A DNA stretch of 64,000 nt from Octopus vulgaris (Eukaryota): the NCBI GenBank assembly GCA_951406725.2, contig OX597830.1, positions 64,356,001 to 64,420,000 of the forward strand, given 5' to 3'. Each line of letters begins with the position of its first letter. Position 1 is the stretch's first letter. The notes beneath the pieces are model-generated. The model did no database searches and was not told where the DNA came from. It was given only the letters and a program-made list of their open reading frames with translations. Positions 1,212-61,639 of the stretch are shown here, in pieces. The translations under genes were made by a program, and so were the position numbers.

Positions 1212-1727
1212 GGGATGTATGTACTTTTGACGCTCACACATATCTATGTTTCATGTCATATCATATAATATGATATCATACGTTATATTATATACAGAAG
1301 CTAAAAGACAGCATTCCTCTGAAATTCTCGTTCCCGATATCTGACGATAGTGAAAATTGGAACGTAATGCAAAGTAAAGATTTGATTGGATAATGTAATT
1401 GATGCAAAAAGAATATTAAAGCAGACGCTATACAAAGTAAAATAGAAATATTATCAACTAAAGAATATAAAGAATTAAATAATGAGTGTCCATGCGATTT
1501 ATCTGCCAGAGAAAAGAAGAAAGGAGAGAAAAAATTGGAAGAGGAACTTGTGTGGAGAGGAATTGCTAAAAATATGGGTACTGGCGAAGAAATGGGATAA
1601 AATCATATAGGCACATGGTTCCGGGCTTAGTCCCACTGCATAGCACCTGGGGCAAGTACCTTCTAGAGCAAGTGCCTTGTGAGTGGATTTGGTAGATGGA
1701 AACTGAAAGAAGCTTGTCATATACATG

Positions 1728-1828
<101 letters not shown>

Positions 1829-1857
1829 ATGTGTATGTATGTACGTATGCATGCATG

Positions 1858-1912
<55 letters not shown>

Positions 1913-2065
1913 ATGTATGTGTGTGTATGTATGTACGTATGCATGCATGTATATATGTGTGTGTTCGTGTTTGTAACCCCAACGTCGCTTGACAACCGAG
2001 TCAGACGCCGTGATAGATCGTTAGCCACCACACACATTTTTTCTCTCCTTGTTTTTTCTGTGTCC

Positions 2066-2101
2066 CTTTCTGTAGAGGAGCGTAGGCTCGAAACGTAAAA
2101 G
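2066..2101 (+). ncRNA. Minimal hammerhead-like motif (CUGUAGA, A6U)
   Basis: cttt-CTGTAGA-g-gagc-gtag-gctc-GAAA-cg-TA-aaag. Confidence 0.65.
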
Positions 2102-2209
2102 ACTTTTTCTATTCTTGAGCGCTATACTAATACATCTGTTTGTTTTGTAGACCACCTGTTTTCGTCTTTTGTTTTTTTTTTCGTAAACTTTCCCTATATA
2201 TATCACGCG

Positions 2210-2541
2210 CTCACGTGGTCTCACTTGTTGATCCTATCTTCTCTACCACTACGAACTTTTCTCCACTGGACTTCTACCTCTACGGATACTTACCCTCTGG
2301 CTGCACCTTTGGAAACTTTATTTTTACTAATGAGTATGTTGCTGATTTAGAAACTTCGAGAGAACGTGAAATAATCCTCTTTGGTGGTGGTGGAGTCTCG
2401 AAACAGATAAAGATATAAATAATAACGTGCAAATATTGAGTTAGAAAACCGTTCAGATGGAAAAAAAATATGGAAGGCTACTCTATCAAACATAAATTCT
2501 GCTCATAATTTGCTTAAATTGCTTGCGTATTTCCCTCATAT
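2210..2541 (+). pseudogene. Highly decayed Tc1/mariner 3' fragment
   Basis: SPLDFYLYGYL resembles the PLDF.LWGYLK motif; ends in a TIR-like ...ccctcaTA. Confidence 0.4.
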
Positions 2542-2592
2542 TTGATTACTTCGATACTAAGAAGACGAAGGAGGAGGAGGAGGAGGAGGCGG

Positions 2593-2954
2593 TGTAGTAG
2601 TAGTAGCTGTTGTAGTAGTAAAAGAAGTAGTAGGAGGAGGAGAGGCAGCAGAGTAGTAGTAATAGTAAAAGTAGTAGTTGTAATAGATGTAGTAGTAGTA
2701 GTACTAGGTGTAGTAGTAGTAGTAGTAATAGTAAAAGCAGTGGAAGTAGTAGAAATAGTAGTAGTAGTTGTAGTAGTAGTAGTAGTAGTAGTAGTAGACG
2801 AGGGAGAAGAAGAAGCAGCAGTAGTAGTAGTAGTAGTAGTAGTAGCAGCAGTAGCAGTAGTTGTAGTAGTAGTAGTAGTAGTAGCAGCAGAAGTAGTAGC
2901 AGTAGTAGTAGCAGCAGTAGCAGTAGTTGTAGTAGTAGTAGTAGTAGTAGCAGC

Positions 2955-2994
<40 letters not shown>

Positions 2995-3080
2995 ATAGCA
3001 GCAGTGACAGTAGTAGTAGTAGTAGCAGCAGTAGCAGTAGTAGCTGTAGTAGTAGTAGTAGTAGTAGTAGTAGCTGTAGC

Positions 3081-3115
<35 letters not shown>

Positions 3116-3185
3116 CAGCAGAAGTAGTAGCAGTAGTAGTAGCAGCAGTAGCAGTAGTTGTAGTAGTAGTAGTAGTAGTAGCAGC

Positions 3186-3225
<40 letters not shown>

Positions 3226-3299
3226 ATAGCAGCAGTGACAGTAGTAGTAGTAGTAGCAGCAGTAGCAGTAGTTGTAGTAGTAGTAGTAGTAGTAGCAGC

Positions 3300-3342
<43 letters not shown>

Positions 3343-3393
3343 ATAGCAGCAGTGACAGTAGTAGTAGTAGTAGCAGCAGTAGCAGTAGTAGCT

Positions 3394-3427
<34 letters not shown>

Positions 3428-3434
3428 CTGTAGC

Positions 3435-3472
<38 letters not shown>

Positions 3473-3476
3473 CAGC

Positions 3477-3511
<35 letters not shown>

Positions 3512-3515
3512 CAGC

Positions 3516-3550
<35 letters not shown>

Positions 3551-3558
3551 CAGTAGTA
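2593..3558. repeat. (GTA)n/(GCA) trinucleotide array with higher-order repeats
   Basis: Marker gtaatagcagcagtgaca recurs at about 2992, 3223 and 3340. Confidence 0.92.
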
Positions 3559-4213
3559 ATTTATTTAGTATTGGACAAGTTCGTTATTTATCATCCTCAA
3601 ATCCCGTCGAGGTCATTTTTGCTTGTAAAAGCCAAATTGAGGTCGTTTGAACTGAACGCACAGAGAGGACGTACCCATCGTCACAAGGAACTAAACCTAA
3701 TGCTCTACCGATTCTGACGAATACAAATCATAAAAAAACTCCTTCAAAGCAAAGGAAATAATGAAAACACAACACAACAATTTTATGGTGAAATTTCTTT
3801 ATTCGATTTTACACTCGCCCGAGTGTTAATTGCAATATAAATATGTAGTATATATATATATACAGCTATAAACACATGCACTGGAGTATATACAACAATA
3901 AACACGTGCAACCGAGTTTCAAAGGTGTGTATACATTCTTTGAACTCCTGTAATGTTAGCATATGTTTAATAATATTTACAAAAAAAGGAATATAATGCA
4001 TTCACAGACACACTTCGCAATCATTTCCATTCGTGCATTTATCACCCATTTACATGTTATGCGCATGCATACTCTCGTATATACAAAATATTGTGTGTAT
4101 GTGTGGTGTTTGTGTGTGTGTGTATGTGTGTTTGTGAGTGTGCTAAAACGTAAACTTTCTCTGAGAAACCTATACATATTGCAAATTAAAAACGTATTAC
4201 ACGAACAAAAATA

Positions 4214-4499
4214 CAGTAATGCCTCGATATTGAATTAATTTGTTCTCGGAGGCTGCTCGTAAAGCGAAAACTCGTAAAGCAGAGCAATAGTTTCGCATAG
4301 AATCAAGGAAATTTTATGCCGTCTTTTTACTCCGTCGCTACATGTAGCTGTGTAGACGCGTCAGAACTAGTGTTGCCACATGTTGCGACTTTGCCACACA
4401 CACAAAATGGCTGTTTAACCCTTTTACAGTATATCATTAAATAAAACTCGTAAACCCGGGGTCTCGTAAAGCGGGTCTCCGTAAAGTGAAGTATTACTG
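4214..4499. mobile_element. Tigger/pogo-like MITE
   Basis: TA|CAGTAATGCCTCG ... TGAAGTATTACTG termini; internal ctcgtaaa repeats. Confidence 0.65.
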
Positions 4500-5065
4500 T
4501 TTATATATATATAACTACCTAAAATTAAGTAAATACCTATACATACGTATGTGTGTGTCTTTACATATATGCATATATGCGTATGTGTATATACATATAT
4601 ATATATATATATATACTCACGCACACAGAAGCATTCATAAGTATATATATATATATACATACATACATACGCCGCACAGCACAAACAGAAATACACACGC
4701 ACATACATATGTATATATTTGCAGACACGTTATTGTTAGTGTATAAATAAAAAATGCATATACCTACGTACATGTGTGTAACGCACCCTAGTATGCATAG
4801 TCTTTGTGTGTGGATGTGTGTGTGCATTACAAATAATATGTATATGTATTTATACATACATATATCTACACACATGTACATTCATATACATACACACACA
4901 TATATACACAAGCACACACAGACACATGTGCATTTATATATACACCCAAATATATATGTGTGTAAAACACACACATATATATATGTGTACATAGATACAT
5001 ACTTATGTACAAACATGCATACATATATACAAACATATATATATATATATGCACACACTCACACA

Positions 5066-5107
<42 letters not shown>

Positions 5108-5228
5108 GATACACACACACGTGTATAAACGGTTCAAAATATACAGAAAAATATGTAAACACACACACAGATTGGTAGAACAACAAACAAGGTGTATTAG
5201 TTTAACGCTCAAGGAGAATGGAAGAAGG

Positions 5229-5264
5229 GTTTAACGTTTCGAGCCGATGATCTTCTACAGAAAT
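5229..5264 (-). ncRNA. Minimal hammerhead-like motif (CUGUAGA), same family as 2066
   Basis: Minus strand reads attt-CTGTAGA-a-gatc-atcg-gctc-GAAA-cg-TT-aaac; downstream sequence is similar to the 2066 copy. Confidence 0.58.
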
Positions 5265-5765
5265 GAATGAAGAGAGAAAACAGATGGAGTGAGAGAAAGA
5301 AAAATGCATCTGAATCAACTGTTACTACATGTCAACTTGAGTGTTTCGTATTGCATACTGTACCCGAAGGAGAAGTTTCCTAAACAGAAAGGCAGCGACA
5401 ATAAAATTCAGGATCCAGCATATCTGACCAGACGTACAAACATGCCGTCTTTTGTGCATAGTTCACAAATTCATACTGAGCTGTGCAGAAATATTTGTTA
5501 ATTTGTCAATCATTCCACCAAATAACTCACGGAATGAAAATTCGCATCACTATTACAGATAATTTCTGCTTTAAGGGTTATTTATTCCTGGCTTTGTCAT
5601 CAAGAAGCCGTGTAACATGCTAGAACACTCTCCCTGATTTAGTTTTGCTTTGCTTTGTTTTGAGCAGCGAATTTATATGTATTTACAGTCGCACAACGGA
5701 AAAGCCAGGATCTTTACTTGTTCTAGGCGTCTATTCGAAGCTGTGTGAGCATATCTGTCTATTTG

Positions 5766-5841
<76 letters not shown>

Positions 5842-6866: not shown

Positions 6867-7085
6867 CTTTTTTACTCTTTTACTTGTTTCAGTCATTTGA
6901 CTGCGGCCATGCAGGAGCACCGCCTTTAGTCGAGCAAATCGACCCCGGGACTTATTCTTTTGTAAGCCCAGTACTTATTCTATCGGTCTCTTTTGCCGAA
7001 CCGCTAAGTAACGGGGACATAAACACACAAGCATCGGTTGTCAAGCAATGCTAGGGGGACAAACACAGACACACAAACACACACA

Positions 7086-16806: not shown

Positions 16807-17964
16807 ATACGCGCACACACACACACACATACACACACACTCACAGACACCTTCATAACCCCAGTCACTCAACGTCAATCACCACCGTGTTCAGTATTGT
16901 CCAAAGTTATTACCCCAACCCCCACCCCTACCACCACCACCACCACTACGACGACAACAACAACTACAACAACAGCAGCAAAAACAAGAATCACCACCAA
17001 ACACCATCTTCAACATCGACACGCAAACATCCTTACCGACATTATTGTCACCGCTGCCATCTACCTACATCAACTCAAGACTATTTCGAAATCGAATAAC
17101 CACTACCGTTGCCACCACCACCACCACCACCACCACCACCACCGCCACCACCACCGCCACATCCTCTTCCTCCTCTAAAGCTACACAATACCATTCTATC
17201 ACGTCATCAAATACACACCACCAATAACCACCCTAACTACCTTCGCCGTAATCACATTGCTACCACCACCACTACCACCACCACCACCACCACCACACCA
17301 CTACCATTACTAGTACCACTACTAGCAGTAGTAGTAGCAGCAGCAGCAGCGGCACCACCACCACCACCACCATCACAACTACAGCAGTAGCCACCACAAT
17401 CGTGTCTTACCTACATAACACCATTCTATCAAAAAATCAAATCCACCCCAACGCAAACATCACCACCACCACCACCACCACTAACAATCACAGCAACAAC
17501 AATAACAAAAACAGCCAGGACCACCACCACCACCACCACCACCACCACCACCACCACCACCACCTCCTACTCATTACCTACATACCATCAGTCTTATTCT
17601 GAACATCAAAATCACGCCTCAAAACCACAAACAACAATTTAATGGGATTTTTATGTCTACCCTCTTCTCCCCGCCTCCCCTTCCACCTCTCCTTATTTTC
17701 CACTTAACAAAAAAAACCCCCCAAAAAAACAGAAAAGAAAAGGGATCATGTATCTTTCAATGTTTTCTTCTAGTGACCCCTTTTATTCGAGTACACGTTT
17801 ACTAAGAGGCCCCTAATTTTGTCGTTGATTGATACATCATCTTATCTGTTGATGTCACAGTTCCCTATATATAAGCAGTGGGCGGGGGGATGAGGTTCTA
17901 CGTAATTGTTCGCTTTGCTAGAAATAGCAGTCAAATACTTCTGAAATTACTACTCTATCTACAC

Positions 17965-20106: not shown

Positions 20107-20141
20107 GTTTAACGTTTCGAGCGGAGCTCTTCGTCAGAAAC
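20107..20141 (-). ncRNA. Minimal type I hammerhead, canonical core
   Basis: Minus strand reads gttt-CTGACGA-a-gagc-tcc-gctc-GAAA-cg-TT-aaac. Confidence 0.78.
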
Positions 20142-23777: not shown

Positions 23778-24193
23778 CTTTTACTTGTTTCGGCCATTTG
23801 ACCGCGTCCATGCTGGAGCACCGCCTTGAAGGGTTTTAATTGAACAAATTGGGACTTACTTTTTTTGAAGCCTAATACATATTCTATCGGTGTCTTTTGA
23901 CGAACCGCTAGTTACGGAGACGTAAACACACAACACCGGTTGTCAAATTGTCAAACGATGATGGGGGTTAAACACAGATAAAAAGACACACACATAGATA
24001 CGCACAGATACATGCACATATATTTATATATGACGGGTTTCTTTCAGTTTCCGTCTTCCAAAACAACTCACAAGTCTTCGGTCGATCCATGATTATAGTA
24101 GAAGACACTTTCTCAAGGTGCCACGCAGTGGGACTGAACCCGGAACCATGTGGTTGGGAAGCAAGCTTCTTACCACACAGCCAAGCCTACGTC
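23778..24193 (-). mobile_element. SINE family A, full length
   Basis: Colinear with 6867-7291. Confidence 0.88.
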
Positions 24194-30841: not shown

Positions 30842-31156
30842 GGTAGCACATGAGGGTTGGCTCCAACGAGACAAACTTGTAACACGCATAAAGACACACA
30901 CACACACACGTGTTTGTTAAGACACACACACGTGTTTGTTAAGACACACACGCACACACACACGTGTGTGCGTGTGTATGTGTTACAAGTTTATATATAC
31001 AGTAGTAATAATAGGCATCTGTCGGTCTTGAAATATATACATAGATAGAATAAGTACTAGAATAATACAAAGAATAAGTCCTGGAGCCGATATGCTCAAC
31101 TGAAGGTGGTGCTCCAACATGGCCGCAGTCAAATGACTGAAACAAGTAAAAGTGTA

Positions 31157-31329: not shown

Positions 31330-31691
31330 TAATCAAAATAAAAACATGATGCTAAGGATTCAGCGGTACATATGTTTCGGGCCTTTATTAGACGGATTTA
31401 TAACAATGCATAATGTGTGTCTATGGCCTTCTTCAGCCGCGCACAATTACTACCCCAAGGACATGTATTACATCAAAAATTCTACGTTGGGGATGCAAAT
31501 CCTCTCATTCGCGTACGACATAATGCGGCAGCAGCACAAAAATGAAGCGTCCAAAGTAAGATGTGGCAGAGCACGTTCCAGGCCGATATATGATAGTGAT
31601 GGGAGTCGGCCCGACTAGAGAGAGGAGGAAGGCGAGCAGTCGGGATATTTGGAGAAGGTTCCTGGTCAGTTGTGCAGATAGTATTGGATGG

Positions 31692-31696
<5 letters not shown>
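31330..31696 (-). mobile_element. Solo PLE pseudo-LTR fragment of a different family, between (TA)n arrays
   Basis: Carries the 31363-31440 hammerhead and a possible decayed second one near 31483-31515. Not visibly homologous to the 35 kb pseudo-LTR. Confidence 0.55.
31363..31440 (-). ncRNA. Minimal type I hammerhead with canonical core and extended stem II
   Basis: Minus strand reads gcgg-CTGAAGA-a-ggcc-a-tagac...gtcta-ataaa-ggcc-c-GAAA-catatg(palindrome)-TA-ccgc. Confidence 0.82.
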
Positions 31697-31769
<73 letters not shown>

Positions 31770-31938
31770 CGGTAAAGACACCAGAACTCCGAGAAATAGC
31801 ATTAAAAGTGGACAACCTCACCAACGCAACATACACCAGAACACGTGGCAACATGAACACCCGTTTCACCACGAATCGAAGACGAACTACGGTAAGAACT
31901 CTTCCCATTTTGTATGCAAACACCCTAATGCACACAAC

Positions 31939-34572
31939 ATGAACAAAAAGCACAAACAAAATAGATATTGTTTTGAACAAACCATTAGCAGTAGAAATAA
32001 CAGGAGATCATTTTCAAGACCTCAACAGAGATTACCCACAAGAAACTGGACAAAAAACCGATCTAGATCTAGAAGTAAACCCAGATCATTTCTCCAGGTG
32101 GTTAAAAACAATGCTAACAAGAAATTGAAAAGTAGCATACATAATACCAAAAACAAGACAGAAAACATAACGAAACCAAGTAAAGTACCACAACCAAAAC
32201 GCAAAATTCATCAAGCAAACATCAACAGGAATATAAATCATAACCAGAAAAAAATCCATTTTTTTACGTCAGGACAACAAACACCGGAGAAAGAAAAAAA
32301 TCCAAGAGGAAACATACCCCAAACAACTGAACGTATAGATCCTAAAATAATTAATTTATCAAAAAGAGATCTTGACAATGATGAAATCCAACTTCTGTCA
32401 AAAGGACTGAAATTCACACCTACACCAACAGCCAACCACCAAGAATTAAAGGAGGATATCCAAAAATTCTGTCGAAAATTACGACTTGTAGAATTCTTCG
32501 CTAACAAAAGTAATGAGATTGATGAATCCCTAGTAAGGAATAAATCAAATTTCACCCCACCAAAAGGAAGAAATAACTACCTTGACCAATACATTGATAT
32601 CCTGTCTAAATTTCCCCTTAGACGCAATACCAATGTTAGGCCAAACATTAGCAAATCAGAGATGTCTGCATGTAAACGTATACAAAACGATCAAACAATA
32701 ATAATTAAACAAGCAGATAAAGGTGGTGCAATTGTTATTATGGATACCGAATACTATAAGGATTTGGTTGAAGACCAACTGAAGGATACAACCTTCTATT
32801 GTGAAATACCCGCAAATATAGACCACCACATCATGAAAAAGATCAACAACCTGATTTCAACACACCACAACTCACTTACGGATAATGAAAAAGACTACAT
32901 CACCAATTTTGAACCAAAACCCAGCAACTTCTACGGCTTACCAAAAATACACAAATCAAAAAACATTCAACAGGCAGTAAAAGAACAAGAAAGTGAGTAC
33001 ATAAAATTATTACATCCAAAAGACCTAAAACTTAGACCTATTATAGCTGGTCCAGCATGCCCTACACACCGTCTAAGCAATTTTATTGACATTGTTTTGA
33101 AACCACTATGTACTTACATACCAAGTTTCATCAGGGATGACATCGACTTCCTGTCCCATCTTCCCAAAACAACAGAAACAAATTCAGTTTTGCTAAGTTT
33201 TGATGTGGTAAGCCTCTACACCAATATTCCACACGATTTAGGAATAAAGGCGATTAAATACTGGTTAGAAAAACATAGAGAAGTGATTCCCAGCAGATTC
33301 ACAGTGGCATTTATATTAGACACAGTCAAACTTATTCTAGAAAATAACACATTCTTCTTCAATGGAAAGAATTACATCCAAATTAGAGGCACGGCGATGG
33401 GAACGAGGTTTGCTCCCGTTTACGCCAACTCTGTAATGGGATACTTAGAAGAACAACTCTACCAAGAGGTGGAGGTAAACTATGGCACTGGATTTAGAAA
33501 GTATATTGAAAAGGCATGGAAGAGATACCTAGACGACTGTTTCATAATCTGGACAGAATCTCTAAATACTCTGGAAGAGTTCAATATCCTCCTGAACAAC
33601 CTACACCCATCTCTCAAATTTACAAAGGAGATGAGTAGTACCAAATTACCATTCCTGGATATAATGGTAATTAAAAATGACACCACCATCACCACAGATA
33701 TATACTATAAACACACAGACACACATCAATACCTAAATTTTAAGTCGTGCCATCCACCACATACAAAACGTAACATCCCATACTGCCTAGCCAGAAGAAT
33801 TTGTACTATTGTAGAAGATGCAAATATCAGGAACAAACGCCTAATAGAACTAAGAGAATTTTTGCTCAAACAAAAATACCCATCTCTACTTATAGAAAAT
33901 GGCATACAGCGGGCTATAAAAATACCTATACAACAACTTAGGACAACCCAAGGAAGAGGAAAACAAGAACAAGTCATACCATTCATAGTGACACACAACC
34001 CATGTCACCAGAATATCTTCAACATTGCCAAAGCAAACCTTCCAATCATTGCCCAAAGTAATGAATTAAAAGACATAATCAAGGATCGAGCTATGGTGCT
34101 TAGTAAAAGACAGCCTAAAAACTTGAAAACATTACTAACAAAGGCAAAATTTGACCTCAGCAACAAAGACCAAACATTCACGGTATCTAAATGCAATGAT
34201 AGCCGATGTGGCACATGCCAATTCATACATACCGGTCAATATATAAACACAAAAACCGGGAAAATATTCACAAACGCGAATATGAACTGCAAAAGCAGAA
34301 ATTTAATTTACTGCATCAAATGCCCAAATTGTGAAGAAATATATGTAGGTCAGACGGGAAACGCACTATTAGAACGCTCACGTGTACACCGGCAACAGAT
34401 TAGAGACCCAGAGGTCCGTCAGATACCTTTGAGTAACCACCTAGCAACATGTGGTCGGAAAATATATATAATATTTCCATTCTACAAATTACACAGCCCA
34501 AGTGAAATCGAGAGGAAAATCAGAGAAAAGAATTTTATTGATAAATTCGAACCCAAACTAAATAAGCAATAA
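31939..34572 (+). CDS. PLE reverse transcriptase-GIY-YIG endonuclease ORF (first ATG at 31939, about 877 aa; frame is open from the (TA)n junction)
   Basis: Motifs IINLS, LLSKGLKF, ADKG, GLPKIHK, RPII, SFDVVSLYTNIP, GTAMGTRFAP, RYLDD, FLD, Cx4Cx2C knuckle (CNDSRCGTC) and NLIYCIKCPNC..IYVGQT..ER..H...H (GIY-YIG with CCHH). No stops or frameshifts. Confidence 0.93.
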   Translation: MNKKHKQNRYCFEQTISSRNNRRSFSRPQQRLPTRNWTKNRSRSRSKPRSFLQVVKNNANKKLKSSIHNTKNKTENITKPSKVPQPKRKIHQANINRNINHNQKKIHFFTSGQQTPEKEKNPRGNIPQTTERIDPKIINLSKRDLDNDEIQLLSKGLKFTPTPTANHQELKEDIQKFCRKLRLVEFFANKSNEIDESLVRNKSNFTPPKGRNNYLDQYIDILSKFPLRRNTNVRPNISKSEMSACKRIQNDQTIIIKQADKGGAIVIMDTEYYKDLVEDQLKDTTFYCEIPANIDHHIMKKINNLISTHHNSLTDNEKDYITNFEPKPSNFYGLPKIHKSKNIQQAVKEQESEYIKLLHPKDLKLRPIIAGPACPTHRLSNFIDIVLKPLCTYIPSFIRDDIDFLSHLPKTTETNSVLLSFDVVSLYTNIPHDLGIKAIKYWLEKHREVIPSRFTVAFILDTVKLILENNTFFFNGKNYIQIRGTAMGTRFAPVYANSVMGYLEEQLYQEVEVNYGTGFRKYIEKAWKRYLDDCFIIWTESLNTLEEFNILLNNLHPSLKFTKEMSSTKLPFLDIMVIKNDTTITTDIYYKHTDTHQYLNFKSCHPPHTKRNIPYCLARRICTIVEDANIRNKRLIELREFLLKQKYPSLLIENGIQRAIKIPIQQLRTTQGRGKQEQVIPFIVTHNPCHQNIFNIAKANLPIIAQSNELKDIIKDRAMVLSKRQPKNLKTLLTKAKFDLSNKDQTFTVSKCNDSRCGTCQFIHTGQYINTKTGKIFTNANMNCKSRNLIYCIKCPNCEEIYVGQTGNALLERSRVHRQQIRDPEVRQIPLSNHLATCGRKIYIIFPFYKLHSPSEIERKIREKNFIDKFEPKLNKQ

Positions 34573-35066: not shown

Positions 35067-35111
35067 TGAACCCGAAGATTGCAGAATTCAATGCATGAAA
35101 GTACTAGTTCA
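35067..35111 (+). ncRNA. Minimal type I hammerhead ribozyme of the PLE pseudo-LTR (U4C core variant)
   Basis: tgaac-CCGAAGA-t-tgca..tgca-t-GAAA-gtac(palindrome)-TA-gttca; stem I is 5 bp perfect. Confidence 0.75.
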
Positions 35112-35275
35112 ATCAGAATGAATATTTAACATTCTACTATTTCATTTTATTTTACTCAATTATAATATATTATCTTATAATATATCATTATAAGATTGTA
35201 AATAAAACGTGAAAATCAGACAAGGTTGGAATTCTTTTTATTAATATATTCTTCTATACACAATCACACACACCC

Positions 35276-39577: not shown

Positions 39578-40270
39578 AACGCAATATTTTGTGCAGACGC
39601 TTTGTAAGGAATAAGTATAATCTGAATAATATTAGTGCCGAAGTTCATATATAATCTCAAGAGTTATTTTAAACTGTAGTTCTAGGCTACGTCAAATAGT
39701 TGAAGGATTTGTTTGCAATTCATGTGTAAATTGTGTACATATTTCCATAATTTAATATTAGAATATGTAGAATTTTGATTTAAATTTGAATGCTGTCTTT
39801 CGCAGTCTGATTTATGCATAACTTGGCTAGAATTGCGTTCTTTCTTCGCTTTCCCCTGATTTTAGGCTTACAAAATGGCATGCTTACAGAAACAACTATC
39901 TGCCGGGAATCACGTTCGTGATTTCGGATGTATGCAGACACGCGTACATGTAGATGTTACACACGCGCACACATATGTATCTATGTGTGTAGGTATGTGT
40001 GTGTGTATATATATATATATTTATATAAACATGTGCATATATTTATATATATATTTATAGAAATATGTGCACGTATATATATATGTGTGTGTGTGTGTAA
40101 GTGTTTGTTCCCCCAATATCGCTTGACAACCGATGCTGGTGTGTTAACGTCCCCGTAATTTGGCACTTCGGGAAAAGAGACCGATAGAATAAGTACTAAA
40201 GGCGGTGTTCCAACATGTCCACAGTGAAATGACTGAAGCAAGTAAAAGAAACAATAAAGGAATCTCTCAG

Positions 40271-40324
<54 letters not shown>

Positions 40325-40402
40325 TCAGTCAGTGTTTCCTATGGTGTTCTCTATAAAACTAAAAAGGCAAGTTATGTTTTTAACCCTCGGCGACGGGGTA
40401 AT

Positions 40403-40450
40403 GGTCACTGATGAAGATTAATCAAATCTAAAATCAACGCTGATATGACT
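40403..40450 (+). ncRNA. Full type I hammerhead with all three stems paired and a single core change (G12A)
   Basis: ggtca-CTGATGA-agatt-aatca-aatct-AAAA-tca-acgc-tga-TA-tgact. Confidence 0.75.
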
Positions 40451-40941
40451 CCATCTCGCTTGCCGTAGAGAGGGGGCTTATCTCCCTTGTCAGTCGTTAG
40501 AAAGGTGCTCTCACGTGCCTAAGAGTTGTTTTGGCTCTTATTTCTAGCAATGCTAGCGCTGACTAGCACCCTCTGTCATTTTAGTGACGACTGTACTTGC
40601 GATATTCGGTGGTAAATTGCAAATAGTCACCATGATTTATGTGTGTTTATGAGCACGTCATATACTTTCATTTTGTAAGTGTTCTGCACACCCACGCACA
40701 CGCACACGCACACGCCCGCATGCACAGACACACACAGACATGACACACATTGCTCTTCCACTCTCCTTTTTTTTTCTTTTTTTACCTTACCTTTCAGGCT
40801 CTTCTTTTCTCATTCACTCATTGCTTCATCCCTCTCCTCACCACCTCCCTCTCCATTTCCACGCGGGAAATCTAAATAAAAAAAATGCTAAATTTGCTGA
40901 CGAGAGTGTCTAGACTCTCCAAATACTTTTAGATACACATG

Positions 40942-41014
<73 letters not shown>

Positions 41015-41508
41015 GCACACACGCACACTCAGTTACATACACACACAATCACTCTAACAAATCCATTCACACAAACATGTTTCACACACACGGATATGCA
41101 TGTCTACATACATACACATACATACATACATACATACACATACATACATACATACATACATACATACATACATACATACTTACATACATACATACGCACA
41201 GGTAAGCTGATACCTAGACAGTTTCGTAGATAAATAATTATATATAATCAGTTACATTCTATGATTAGTTACATATATAATTAATGTATATATTTATGCA
41301 TTTAATTATGTACTCACTCAAATATATATATATATGCATGTATGTATGTATGTATGTATGTATGTATGTATGTATGTATGTATGTATACACCTAAAATCT
41401 CGTGTAATTATAAATACGTACTACATCAACGTATACACACGTGTGCGTGTGTGTGTGTATGTGAGTGTATATTCACAAACCTCGCCCCACATATTTATAT
41501 ATTTGATT

Positions 41509-41870
41509 CTTTTACTTATTTCAGTCATTTGACTGCGGCCACGCTGGAGCACTGCCTTTAGTCGAACATATCGACCCCAGGACTTATTTTTTGTAAAACC
41601 TAGTACTTGGCCCAACCGCTAGGTTACAGGGACGTAAACACACCAGCATCGGTTGTCAAGCGATGTTGGGAGGACAAATACAGACACACAAACATATACA
41701 TATATACTACGGGCTTCTTTCAGTTTCCGTCTACCAAATTCACTCACAAGGCTTTGGTCGGCCCGAGGCTAAAGTAGAAGTCACTTGCCCAAGGTGCCAA
41801 GCAGTGGGACTGAACCCGGGACCATATGTGGTTGGGAAACAAGCTTCTTACCACACAGCCACGCCTGTGC
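41509..41870 (-). mobile_element. SINE family A, near full length
   Basis: Colinear with 6867-7291, with an internal deletion. Confidence 0.88.
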
Positions 41871-43289: not shown

Positions 43290-44967
43290 TTAGTTAGTTA
43301 GTTAGTTAGTTAATTTGGCTCAAAAGCAAATAGCAAGGCCATGTAGGGGGACATGGAGTTAAGTACAGGGTGGTGTTCATGTAAAGAGTTCAGGCCACTT
43401 GAGGTCCAGGGAGGCTTTGAACAAAGCGGTCGTCGGCATCTTCACCATCTCGTCTGGCAGCTTGTTCCACGGATCCGCAACCCGGACGGAGAAAGCTCCT
43501 CTCCTTCGATTGAGATGAAATCGTCGCAGGTAGAGCTTTTCGGAATGACCCCGCAGCCGACGCTCCGGAGCAGGAGTGAAGAACAGCTCTTTCGAGAGGT
43601 TACACTTCCCGCTTATGATGTTGTGGGCGAGAATGAGATCACCACGGCGGCGGCGTTTTTCAAGAGAATAAAGGTCGAGCGTCCTCAGCCTTTCTTCGTA
43701 GGACAAATTTTTGAGACCATGAACCATGCGGGTAGCCAGCCTCTGGACTCTTTCGAGGTGCTGTATGTCTTTGAGGAGATAAGGAGAAGAGGCTTGAATC
43801 CCATACTCCAATATGGGTCTCACCAGCGTGACATAGAGTGGCAGGAATATGGCTGCTGTGAGCATTCCGAATGACCGTCGAATCAAAAACAGAATTCCGC
43901 GCGCTTTGTTGGCAGCATGGACGCACTGGGCCGAAGGCGAAAAGGAGGAATCCACCAAGATACCCAGGTCCTTTACCTGATCGGTCCTCTCCAGCAGCAG
44001 ACGACCCGGCTCGAAATCAAGTTGAGTTGCAGGAGTAGAGCCGACAGGCAGATGACAGCACTTTGACACGTTCAGACACAGGTCCCAATCGTTAGACCAC
44101 TTCCAAATTTGGTGGAGGCATCGACGAAGATCCTCTATACTACCGCGAGGAGCGACCAGTTTGATATCGTCGGCAAATAGAAGGGTGTGTTGCGTGAGGT
44201 CGTCGGCAAGTCATTTATGAAGACTAAGAACAACAAGGGCCCAAGCACTGAACCTTGAGGCACGCCACTGCTCGCACTGGAGACGTCGGACCGCGAACCA
44301 TTAACTTGAACTTGGAAGGAGCGATCTGAGAGGAAGGCACCAACCCATCGTACAATATCCGGATGGAAACTATATGCTTGAAGCTTGACAAGTAGTAGGC
44401 GGTGGTTTACCGAGTCAAAAGCTTTGGCAAAGTCCAATAAAACGATGTCAACAGCATCACTATCATCGAGGATGCGCGTCACCAATTCTTCCATTACTAG
44501 TAAGTTGGTCAAGCATGATCTCTTCGGCACGAAGCCGTGTTGGGAATCAGTGATCGAGGCTGTGTTTAGGAGGTGGAGCATCATACTTTTCTTAAGGATG
44601 GTTTCGAACATCTTGCTGATTATTGATGTAAGGGAAACCGGTCGGTAGTTAAGCGGGTCTTCGCGGCTCCCTTTCTTGAAAATTGGGCAGATTATCGCTG
44701 TTCTCCAGTCTGCAGGTATAACACCCGTCGCCAATGACATATTGAATAGTCGTGTTAAGGGCTCGCAGATGACCGGAGCCAACGCTTTGATAACCCGTGG
44801 GTGTATGCCGTCAGGGCCGTGATCCTTGTTGACATCGAGGCCTTGAATAACACGTTTGACTTGGTCCCGCGTGATGATCAATCGAAGCATTGGAGGTACC
44901 GATCTATCAAATGGAGGGGGTTCACGACCATCATCTTGTTTGAAAATAGTTGAAAAAGCCTCGGCAA
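43290..44967 (-). mobile_element. 5'-truncated CR1-like LINE (RT and C-terminus) with one frameshift and a (TAAC)n tail
   Basis: GPDGIHPRV, PIFKKG, NYRPVSLTS, QHGF...SCLTNLL, DFAKAFDSV, SGVPQGSVLGPLLF, frameshift near 44205 before LFADD, KDLGI, LVRPILEY, RRRRGDLI. Tandem-repeat tail at 43290-43312. Confidence 0.93.
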
Positions 44968-45037
44968 ATAATTGACTCTGTGGTGGTAGTTAATATAGTA
45001 GTAGCGGTTGGTCCTATAACTAGTCTTGTCGTTGTTT

Positions 45038-55467: not shown

Positions 55468-55955
55468 CCGTAGAAACTCGCGGTACGAGTTTCGCATTGT
55501 ACAAGTAATTTGCTATACGAACCGAGCCTCGTGCGAGCTTTTGCCTTGAAGTACGAACAGTATGAGCCCACAAATCGTCCTACCTTTAAGGTAATTAATT
55601 CAGTTAATAAAACCAGTTTACATATTTCTTTTCCGTTCCCTTTTTTATAATTGTCATTTTACTTGTAACCTCTTGAAAGAGCTGTTCTTCACTCCTGCTC
55701 CAGAGCGTCGGCTGCGGGGTCATTCCGAAAAGCTCTACCTGCGACGATTTCATCTCAATCGAAGGAGAGGAGCTTTCTCCGTCCGGGTTGCGGATCCGTG
55801 GAACAAGCTGCCAGACGAGATGGTGAAGATGCCGACGACCGCTTTGTTCAAAGCCTCCCTTGACCTCAAGTGGCCTGAACTCTTTACATGAACACCACCC
55901 CGTACTTAACTCCATGTCCCCCTACATGGCCTTGCTATTTGCTTTTGAGCCAAAT

Positions 55956-55988
<33 letters not shown>

Positions 55989-60236: not shown

Positions 60237-60701
60237 ACTTGGGTTGATTCGGTCTACTAAAGAAAAAAACAAAAAGAAAAAGAAGCAAAAACACCCTTAA
60301 AGACTTTGCCCCAGTGTGGCCGCAGTCCAATGACTGAAACAAGTAATAGACGAATGCTAAAAGATAAGAACCCTTCTCCATACAAAAAAAAGAAGAAGAA
60401 ATAATGAAAAATATAAAATATAAATATAATGTGTCTTGAATGTGTTTTGAATGCAGAGTGGACAACAATAGCTGTTATATTTTAATTATTCATCGTCTGA
60501 TATAATATTTCGGAATATTAAAATTCCTTCTTCAGGTATTGTTAGGAATTGATCGAGTCACTGCTGTAATCGGTTTTCCAGCAACAGTTATTATAGTCGA
60601 GTCTGCATTGTTGAGCCATTCAAGATATTCCACAAACAATACGCAATGCTTCAAGCGAACAACAATACTCTCATAAAGTATGAAATAAAACAAAATCTTA
60701 C

Positions 60702-61256
60702 CTTTTAGCATTGTGTCCATAAAATCACTGATATGTCTTTGCAAATAAGTATAATCCCTAACTCGAATGTACATATTCCTGTAAGCCAACTGTCGAACCT
60801 CTTGGAAAGCATATGCTTTGCCAATAGCAACAACAAAGAGTTTCACTCCCTTAAAACGAGCCCTTTTGGCTTCTAGGATACTAGCATCAGGTTCTTTTAG
60901 TTTGTCATCAACAAACAACACTCCTATATGTGGGGCGTCGTCTCTACCACCATTGGCAGGATCGAAACCGTGATGTCTAAGGCGGCGTATGAGCCAAGCT
61001 AGACTGTGTGTGTCTGGTTTCGTGAAATCGTCGATAAAGTCCTGCGACGTCCGATATTCGGTCAGGTAAATGTCGTTGTGTTGTTGACTGCATTGGCTGG
61101 AGAAAGCACCGACCCTTGTCCAATAAGATCCAATGTGCATTTGTCGTGTGAGGCTGGCGATGAATTCTTTTATGAGATGCAAGTTTTTGTGACCAAATTG
61201 GCAGTCATCGACAAGAAACATGACGTCTAGCCGTTTCTTGGGAAACTTGGACGTAA
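60702..61256 (-). CDS. Internal exon encoding a von Willebrand factor A (VWA) domain of an extracellular-matrix-type protein (collagen VI/matrilin-like); rest of gene not located
   Basis: Minus-strand acceptor ttttcttttctttgcag| ends at 61257 and donor |gtaag starts at 60701. Length 555 nt, phase 1-1, no stops. Translation LDVMFLVDD...TRVGAF...GGRDDAPHIGVLFVDD...EAKRARFKGVKLFVVAIG matches the VWA fold pattern. Confidence 0.88.
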
Positions 61257-61639
61257 CTGCAAAGAAAAGAAAATTAAAGATTTATTTCTATTCGTTGTCA
61301 TGAGCATACATGGCAGTTTTTATCTGAGCCCTTTTTGTTTTTATTTTTAGTGGCTCTGGTCAAACCTGATCGCTTAACCCTTTGCCCGTCCTATATGTCT
61401 CGGGATACACAGAACATATTTTCATAATACACATCCCAGTTTTTTCCAACTACCAGAGTAATTTGTGGCTTACAAACGGAAAACGTTATATTACTCAGAA
61501 TGTATGAAACAAGGGCTTATTAAAGACCTGAAAACAAGCTGAACGTTTCAGGCAAACTTATATGAAAATGCTTTGGGCAGGCAAACGGATAACATTTTAT
61601 AAGAGTAACATGTCAAATAGATGAGATTTTACGCATCAT

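Follow-up and report, generated by a model that had tools for sequence, protein, structure and literature searches.

A multi-copy hammerhead repeat of Octopus vulgaris that probably represents a non-LTR retrozyme family

The window analysed here, a 64,000-nucleotide stretch of Octopus vulgaris contig OX597830.1, is composed of microsatellite-rich animal DNA. On its plus strand an open frame of 990 codons from stop to stop (31600–34572), with reverse transcriptase and GIY-YIG domains, reads as an intact-looking Penelope-like element. A hammerhead-like motif with one core change (U4C) is found about 500 bases after this frame (35067–35112, plus strand) and is likely the 3' terminal-repeat hammerhead of that element. 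Two minimal type I hammerheads, in which an extra base precedes helix II, are present at 20137 (minus strand, core intact) and at 2070 (plus strand, one change). The minus strand carries a broken LINE-type reverse transcriptase in two frames (43377–44989), whose 316-base end recurs inverted at 55664–55979 with 99% likeness, and, at 60532–61281, a von Willebrand A exon from a gene resembling that for cartilage matrix protein, with 98% identity to a protein of Octopus bimaculoides and 92% to one of Argonauta. A worn member of a common family of short interspersed repeats (40112–40254), with relatives at about 6876–7058, 23873–23946, 31075–31152 and 41503–41673, lies just left of a (TG)17.5 microsatellite.

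The right side of this microsatellite abuts the subject of this study, a hammerhead-bearing repeat copy of 309 bases and 43% GC on the plus strand (40325–40633). Its left end is approximate because the contigs of the sequencing runs were compared against 40322–40690 only. A short TG-rich word follows its right end. The TG microsatellite is likely the insertion site; the flanks of the copy show no clear target-site duplication and share only TG-type words of 6–7 letters. The longest ATG frame inside the element has 26 codons, in line with the earlier statement that no ORF is present, and no second copy was found in the window, as expected of the dispersed copy proposed from sequence. Its features are listed below, where family or majority letters are those of related copies in the sequencing runs.

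40287..40321, no strand: (TG)17.5 microsatellite, abutting the left end of the copy
40350..40378, plus: predicted rod helix, 5' arm; five mismatches in the window copy, all paired with majority letters
40388..40399, plus: helix I extension, 5' strand, pairing with 40453–40465 according to folding and family variants
40403..40450, plus: type I hammerhead (helix I, CUGAUGA, helix II with loop AAUCA, A/GAAA, helix III, UA)
40403–07/40446–50, plus: helix I, read from sequence
40408–14, plus: CUGAUGA core, read from sequence
40415–19/40425–29, plus: helix II of 5 pairs, read from sequence
40430, plus: G12A; A in the window copy, G in the family
40430–33, plus: AAAA instead of GAAA, with A at the G12 position (40430)
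40433..40444, plus: helix III with its loop, a perfect 12-nt palindrome with family G40437, broken in the window copy
40434–36/40441–43, plus: helix III of 3 pairs, plus the A15.1-U16.1 pair
40444–45, plus: UA, read from sequence
40445..40446, plus: predicted cleavage site, after A17, placed by hammerhead geometry
40475..40501, plus: predicted rod helix, 3' arm, pairing with 40350–78
40517..40555, plus: high-depth stretch, its summed depth 10–15-fold that over the hammerhead; contains the hairpin 40520–27/40533–40
40555..40570, plus: predicted local hairpin; 6 of 6 pairs with family G40555 and T40557, 4 of 6 in the window copy
40575..40588, plus: predicted local hairpin; a G-U pair becomes G-C with family C40579

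The hammerhead at 40403–40450 has all three stems, including a real helix III, as the sequence-only reading had described, and is the sole motif of such quality in the 64-kb window. The motif appeared in none of 60 simulations that followed the dinucleotide frequencies of the 47.6 kb of non-tandem window sequence, and it is real, not a product of chance. Its three-pair helix III and the lack of an extra base before helix II set it apart from the minimal Penelope hammerheads of the window. The extension of helix I claimed earlier was found at 40388–99/40453–65; the common family variants G40392A and C40463T preserve its pairing, and G40397A requires a shifted register. Part of the family has a G inserted after 40402, which would lengthen helix I to 6 pairs, and loop II fits the RNnA pattern (PMC2632901). 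Rfam gave no match at gathering scores in the whole window; around the element there are 10 weak matches, all sub-threshold, none of them to a hammerhead. Searches with short hammerhead patterns found no locus in metagenome contigs or prokaryote genomes, and two matches in viral contigs were dismissed as chance, having neither helix II pairing nor the rest of the motif. Other candidate features were set aside: a minus-strand hammerhead around 40487–40555 gave no motif match; the TATA-like word at 40353–58, considered as a pol III promoter, has two neighbouring letters that differ in the family and lies inside the rod arm, in a unit interrupted by T4 runs; likenesses to telomerase RNA, U3, U4, 7SK and SECIS have no Rfam support.

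Among the 24 runs listed by the run search, 8 carry part of the stretch and 3 carry half or more; no RNA run is among the listed carriers, a result that bears on expression in neither direction. Related copies were surveyed in the contigs of four DNA runs, compared with 40322–40690 at a likeness of at least 80%: X2 and X6 (organism A), X4 (organism B) and X5 (organism C), under three species labels. The matched contigs number 965, 885, 755 and 797 in X2, X6, X4 and X5, respectively. The window copy thus belongs to a multi-copy repeat family. The family is covered from about 40325 to about 40633, beyond which depth is that of a single locus in one run and about zero in three. The unit is of about 310–345 bases, so that the extent of about 230 nt (40380–40600) proposed originally was too narrow and left the 5' arm of the rod outside. 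Position 40430 reads G in 91–96% of the depth in all four runs (96, 93, 91 and 93%; 8073/8429, 6459/6952, 10081/11021 and 1334/1433 of depth, from 57, 59, 66 and 64 contigs), and therefore GAAA is the family state and G12A a private or rare change. What was found is the reverse of a single-copy sequence with no homologue carrying GAAA, which had been named as part of the outcome that would count against the retrozyme-like reading: 755–965 contigs per run match, and sister copies mostly retain an intact type I hammerhead GAAA core.

Variation is unevenly distributed over the unit. Counted over the 40 listed of 220 variants, apparently those that reach a share of about 25% in some run, other letters occur at 1 of the 39 places of hammerhead core and stems (G12 itself) against 35 of 261 places outside (one-sided Fisher p 0.034) and 3 of 9 places in the hammerhead loops (p 0.017 against core and stems). 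The ratio of summed depth to single-locus depth is 150–590 over the hammerhead and 1600–5800 over 40517–40555, a ratio that differs from copy number and is taken only to mean many copies, and many more at 40517–40555. This stretch is found in only about twice as many contigs as the hammerhead despite its 10–15 times higher depth, which suggests that it is nearly identical across very many copies. It is common to more abundant, more diverged relatives of the family. The loose contig ends beside it resemble the element's own neighbouring sequence, suggesting more diverged subfamilies and not an unrelated repeat. A 24-base word on the minus strand (17912–17935) is 83% like 40530–40553 (E 0.21) and may be a remnant of a relative with the conserved stretch, or chance. 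The 18 differences between the window copy and the family majority include 7 G-to-A and 1 C-to-T changes, which are small numbers; in the family as a whole both types are about equally frequent (38 and 35 places in X2). Of the four runs, X2 alone covers the right flank (40634–40690); X6, which has the same species label and was 76% read, X4 and X5 do not, and two organism-A samples carry just 7% of the words. This coverage in one of four runs, seen for 40647–40690, could reflect a polymorphic locus, sampling or labelling, and is not readable as an insertion polymorphism.

Tandem, partial-tandem and inverted copies exist in the family. Among the 15 joints listed of 49, six go back to an earlier part of the unit, six skip parts and three change strand. 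A tandem spacing of 345 bases occurs in two runs (X6, record 30; X4, record 15), which probably cover a single locus; the hammerheads of these units fall outside the listed pieces. Contigs break in repeats. A joint that goes back from 40587 to 40325 permits a spacing of at most 345, and shorter spacings of at most about 320 (X2 record 4) and about 190 (X2 record 1) were also seen. The window copy stands alone, without a tandem partner for that reason, and is 36 bases shorter than the 345-base spacing. Note that variable spacings, skips and inversions fit ragged Penelope stubs as well as arrays.

The RNA of the unit had been described as almost completely base-paired, which overstates the result: the minimum-energy fold of 40380–40600 in the window copy is 67% paired against 60% in shuffles (z −2.1), and 5 of 200 shuffles, or 2 of 100 in a second set, are as stable. 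Across the folds computed for the window copy, 64–67% of the bases are paired (z −1.6 to −2.2). Folding was repeated on a majority model, obtained by putting onto the window copy the 18 letters whose share is at least half of the depth in each of the four runs; the model is partial, leaves indels aside and takes the majority letters to be linked. These letters lower the predicted energy from −84.9 to −100.8 kcal/mol, which none of 200 sets of random changes of the same types matched, and the modelled unit is predicted to be stably self-paired (z −4.6 linear, −4.0 circular) with 64–66% of its bases paired. The minus strand of the model folds nearly as well (−95.5 against −100.8). The seven letters of the 5' part contribute −18.7 kcal/mol, the two in the hammerhead −4.9 and the nine in the 3' part +2.3. 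Taken separately, 40340–40510 goes from −40.6 to −58.4 with majority letters (0 of 1000 controls as good), and the 3' part (40451–40633) goes from −53.4 to −52.5, with no overall gain (131 of 300 controls as low). The 5' gain is seen in the predicted rod, where 40350–78 and 40475–501 form 19 of 24 pairs in the window copy and 24 of 24 with majority letters, a result that none of the 1000 controls equalled. Both the helix I extension and the hammerhead lie inside the rod, and the hammerhead would sit at the tip of the hairpin. The minor letters G40358 and G40365 and the majority letter G40480 retain G-U pairs in the rod, while G40375 (12–27%) and C40478 (21–26%) would be a compensatory pair if linked. 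Single hairpins of the 3' part (40520–40, 40555–70 and 40575–88) improve with family letters.

The nested helices proposed in the sequence-only reading all exist as complementary words, several of which compete with one another. The family supports taagagtt/ggctctta, where G40534 reads A and a G-U pair becomes A-U. The family letters give no support to ggtgct/agcacc (G40504 reads A in 84–91% of the depth), cagtcgt/acgactg (G40593 reads A in 46–63% and G40496 in 35–53%) and ctagca/tgctag, which has a 1-nt loop and whose G40552 reads A in 17–58%. The pairing aggggg/ctccct improves with family letters and competes with the longer rod.

The letter that completes the palindrome of helix III, G at 40437, is found in 76–86% of the depth; A at 40439, in 8–27%, breaks it. 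For a single copy with family letters, the active fold is predicted to be 5.6 kcal/mol less favourable than an alternative that has the core paired with the 5' strand of helix III. Two copies with family letters would form a double hammerhead 8.3 kcal/mol below two folded monomers (3.3 in the window copy) and within 0.4 kcal/mol of the best co-fold; these energies were computed without magnesium and tertiary contacts. Compared with all 256 loop sequences, the family loop ranks fifth for the gain of the double hammerhead. The idea of the monomer “off-lock” as a selected switch was rejected as unremarkable, an equally large gap being given by 38% of the 256 loops. A palindromic four-letter loop arises by chance alone in 1 of 16 cases. 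The modelling thus hints weakly at selection on the palindrome, not on the lock, and predicts that the palindromic helix III favours double-hammerhead cleavage in tandem copies over cleavage within one. Palindromic helix III with dimer cleavage has been described for metazoan type I hammerheads (PMC4209133; PMC7229834).

The best explanation, which we regard as probable, is that 40325–40633 is a dead, dispersed monomer belonging to a family of non-LTR retrozymes, which Penelope-like elements likely mobilise. Published non-LTR retrozymes are defined as small units with GC under 50% and no protein frame (PMC7229834), and the definition applied here was a unit of 150–450 bases, GC under 50% and no protein frame. 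The octopus unit has 309 bases, or a spacing of 345, 43% GC, no ORF, many copies and an intact family core. The family has the intact core of a type I hammerhead and the window copy does not (G12A). G12 is the general base of the hammerhead (PMC6155905) and G12A slows cleavage about 10^6-fold (PMC2553840), and so the window copy is likely inactive, as had been supposed; the broken palindrome and the five rod mismatches bring to three the counts on which it is likely dead.

The cycle proposed for the family takes its transcription, cleavage, ligation and mobilisation steps from published retrozymes (PMC7229834; PMC7761336). Tandem loci would be transcribed by read-through. In the transcript the rod would bring together the start and the end of the same unit, as the inner helix of a double hammerhead, and the palindromes of neighbouring copies would pair as a 12-pair helix III. 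Both sites would then be cut after A17. The rod of the released unit would hold its two ends side by side for ligation, and a host enzyme would join them into a circle; by this analogy the family would likely yield small circular RNAs. In the folded monomer, pairing with the 5' strand of helix III would sequester the core. The circle would likely be reverse-transcribed by a Penelope-like enzyme and inserted, leaving behind dispersed monomers such as the window copy, which would then decay. The intact-looking Penelope-type frame in the window and the 3 opposite-strand joints among the 15 listed, an arrangement known from Penelope insertions, speak for this part of the cycle.

The sequence-only reading had called the family retrozyme-like. 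Its multi-copy nature and GAAA core stand, and assignment to retrozymes, while favoured, faces a less likely though substantial alternative: the family would be a terminal repeat (pLTR) that carries the hammerhead and belongs to an autonomous Penelope-like element, the window copy a truncated stub, and the hammerhead would process the element's own transcript. In Penelope elements, truncated copies in inverted orientation, a tail of 30–40 bases and a microsatellite bias are typical (bioRxiv 2021.04.23.441226). The octopus family has truncated inverted copies as well as partial tandems (3 opposite-strand and 6 go-back joints among the 15 listed of 49), spacings vary and the window copy abuts (TG)17.5. 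Some Penelope hammerheads also have a small palindromic helix III (PMC4209133). Yet no coding frame adjoins the window copy, and the 345-base repeat spacing leaves no room for one. The end of the nearest Penelope frame is 5.7 kb distant, and the termini of its element have no sequence in common with the window copy; given this lack of likeness and the different hammerhead, the Penelope element of the window is at most a candidate mobilising partner. Helices I–III and loop II look classical, unlike the minimal Penelope type elsewhere in the window; this lowers the case for Penelope membership and does not close it, since non-minimal Penelope variants exist. Retrozymes have been argued to derive from pLTRs (bioRxiv 2026.07.22.740005), so that the two readings intergrade, and what divides them is whether the unit is copied independently.

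Three further explanations carry far less weight. It is very unlikely that the family is an old repeat spreading or persisting at the DNA level (satellite or hairpin type), its hammerhead a relic, its rod the relic of an inverted duplication and no RNA cycle at present. About half of the matched contigs fall short of 90% likeness (451 of 965 in X2), most changes are of the C>T and G>A types expected from neutral decay, runs of different species labels contain the same loci, and the folding of the minus strand comes close to that of the plus strand. Against this stand the lower variation of hammerhead core and stems than of the rest, the very high depth per contig of 40517–40555, which suggests many near-identical copies, and the several common variants that retain plus-strand G-U pairs. 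Reading the element as a box C/D snoRNA or kink-turn RNA, from UGAUGA (40409–14), CUGA (40440–43) and a terminal stem, is less credible still. Both boxes are present, and the Rfam model snoU2_19 touches 40403–40445 (E 0.82); its 23 bits, however, are far under the family threshold of 39 bits, the boxes are just 25 bases apart, the first has no purine, and the family, a decaying multi-copy repeat, restores GAAA exactly at the hammerhead place. As for chance, by which the motif would have arisen in unrelated sequence, its detection had to tolerate one core mismatch and the Rfam hammerhead models gave no match, but the simulations never produced the motif and the mismatch falls where the family has the consensus letter, so that this notion is practically refuted.

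A bolder extension of the retrozyme reading is put forward as speculation, unlikely as it stands: the octopus family would be active, with thousands of copies and abundant circles of about 345 nt, would cut only as a double hammerhead, by way of the palindromic helix III of 12 pairs, its circles keeping their own cores locked, and 40517–40555, far more conserved than the rest, would be a signal shared with the mobilising Penelope element. If so, this signal would name the mobilising partner of a metazoan retrozyme, which no metazoan retrozyme motif has revealed according to a review (PMC7761336). In practical terms the defined unit, the predicted cleavage site and the high-depth conserved stretch provide a handle for octopus assemblies and total-RNA data, by which retrozyme arrays, circles and the mobilising Penelope family could be sought. 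Octopuses edit their RNA heavily, and the long double-stranded rod, if it forms, would be an obvious editing substrate.

Non-LTR retrozymes are known in mussel, coral and amphibians (PMC7229834; bioRxiv 2026.07.22.740005), and the present family likely extends hammerhead retrozymes to cephalopods. The literature search found no description of a cephalopod hammerhead retrozyme, although the supplements of PMC7229834 and of the 2026 preprint may list octopus hammerheads; the word “cephalopod” is absent from the main text of PMC7229834, and the preprint, a survey of 35 genomes (bioRxiv 2026.07.22.740005), names no mollusc in the accessible portion of its text. In the giant squid genome 235 Rfam matches to “hammerhead 1” were counted (PMC6962438); these were not assigned to a repeat family, and the octopus window copy is below every Rfam threshold. 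The octopus family resembles the pLTR hammerheads of Penelope elements in being of type I, in its inverted and partial-tandem joints, in lying beside a microsatellite and in having a Penelope frame in the same genome. It differs in that the window copy has no adjoining frame, is not a minimal hammerhead and shows no likeness to Penelope ends in the window.

The closest parallels are the metazoan non-LTR retrozymes of coral, of Mytilus galloprovincialis (350–390 bp) and of axolotl (330/350 bp) (Cervera and de la Pena 2020, PMC7229834), set here beside the octopus family by description and not by sequence. Expression, cleavage and circles were demonstrated for published metazoan retrozymes and are predicted for the octopus family; note that of 9 dimers predicted for Xenopus retrozymes, 8 failed to self-cleave in vitro (bioRxiv 2026.07.22.740005). 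Dispersed monomers are common among retrozymes (Li et al. 2026, bioRxiv 2026.07.22.740005). Helix II of the octopus hammerhead has 5 pairs and closes on A-U, where the usual closing pair is G-C, and its helix III has three pairs plus A15.1-U16.1 within a palindrome of 12 nt, compared with 1–2 pairs in the published canonical type (PMC4209133). A further difference from canonical metazoan type I hammerheads is that the 5' half of the palindrome is predicted to pair also with the core. The palindromic helix III and the predicted pairing of tandem copies are shared with the amphibian satellite, with axolotl HHR_Amex1 and with the canonical metazoan type I hammerhead (PMC7229834; PMC4209133). With the metazoan non-LTR retrozymes the octopus family has in common a type I hammerhead, a non-coding unit of a few hundred bases with GC under 50%, many copies of which some are in tandem, and a self-paired predicted fold.
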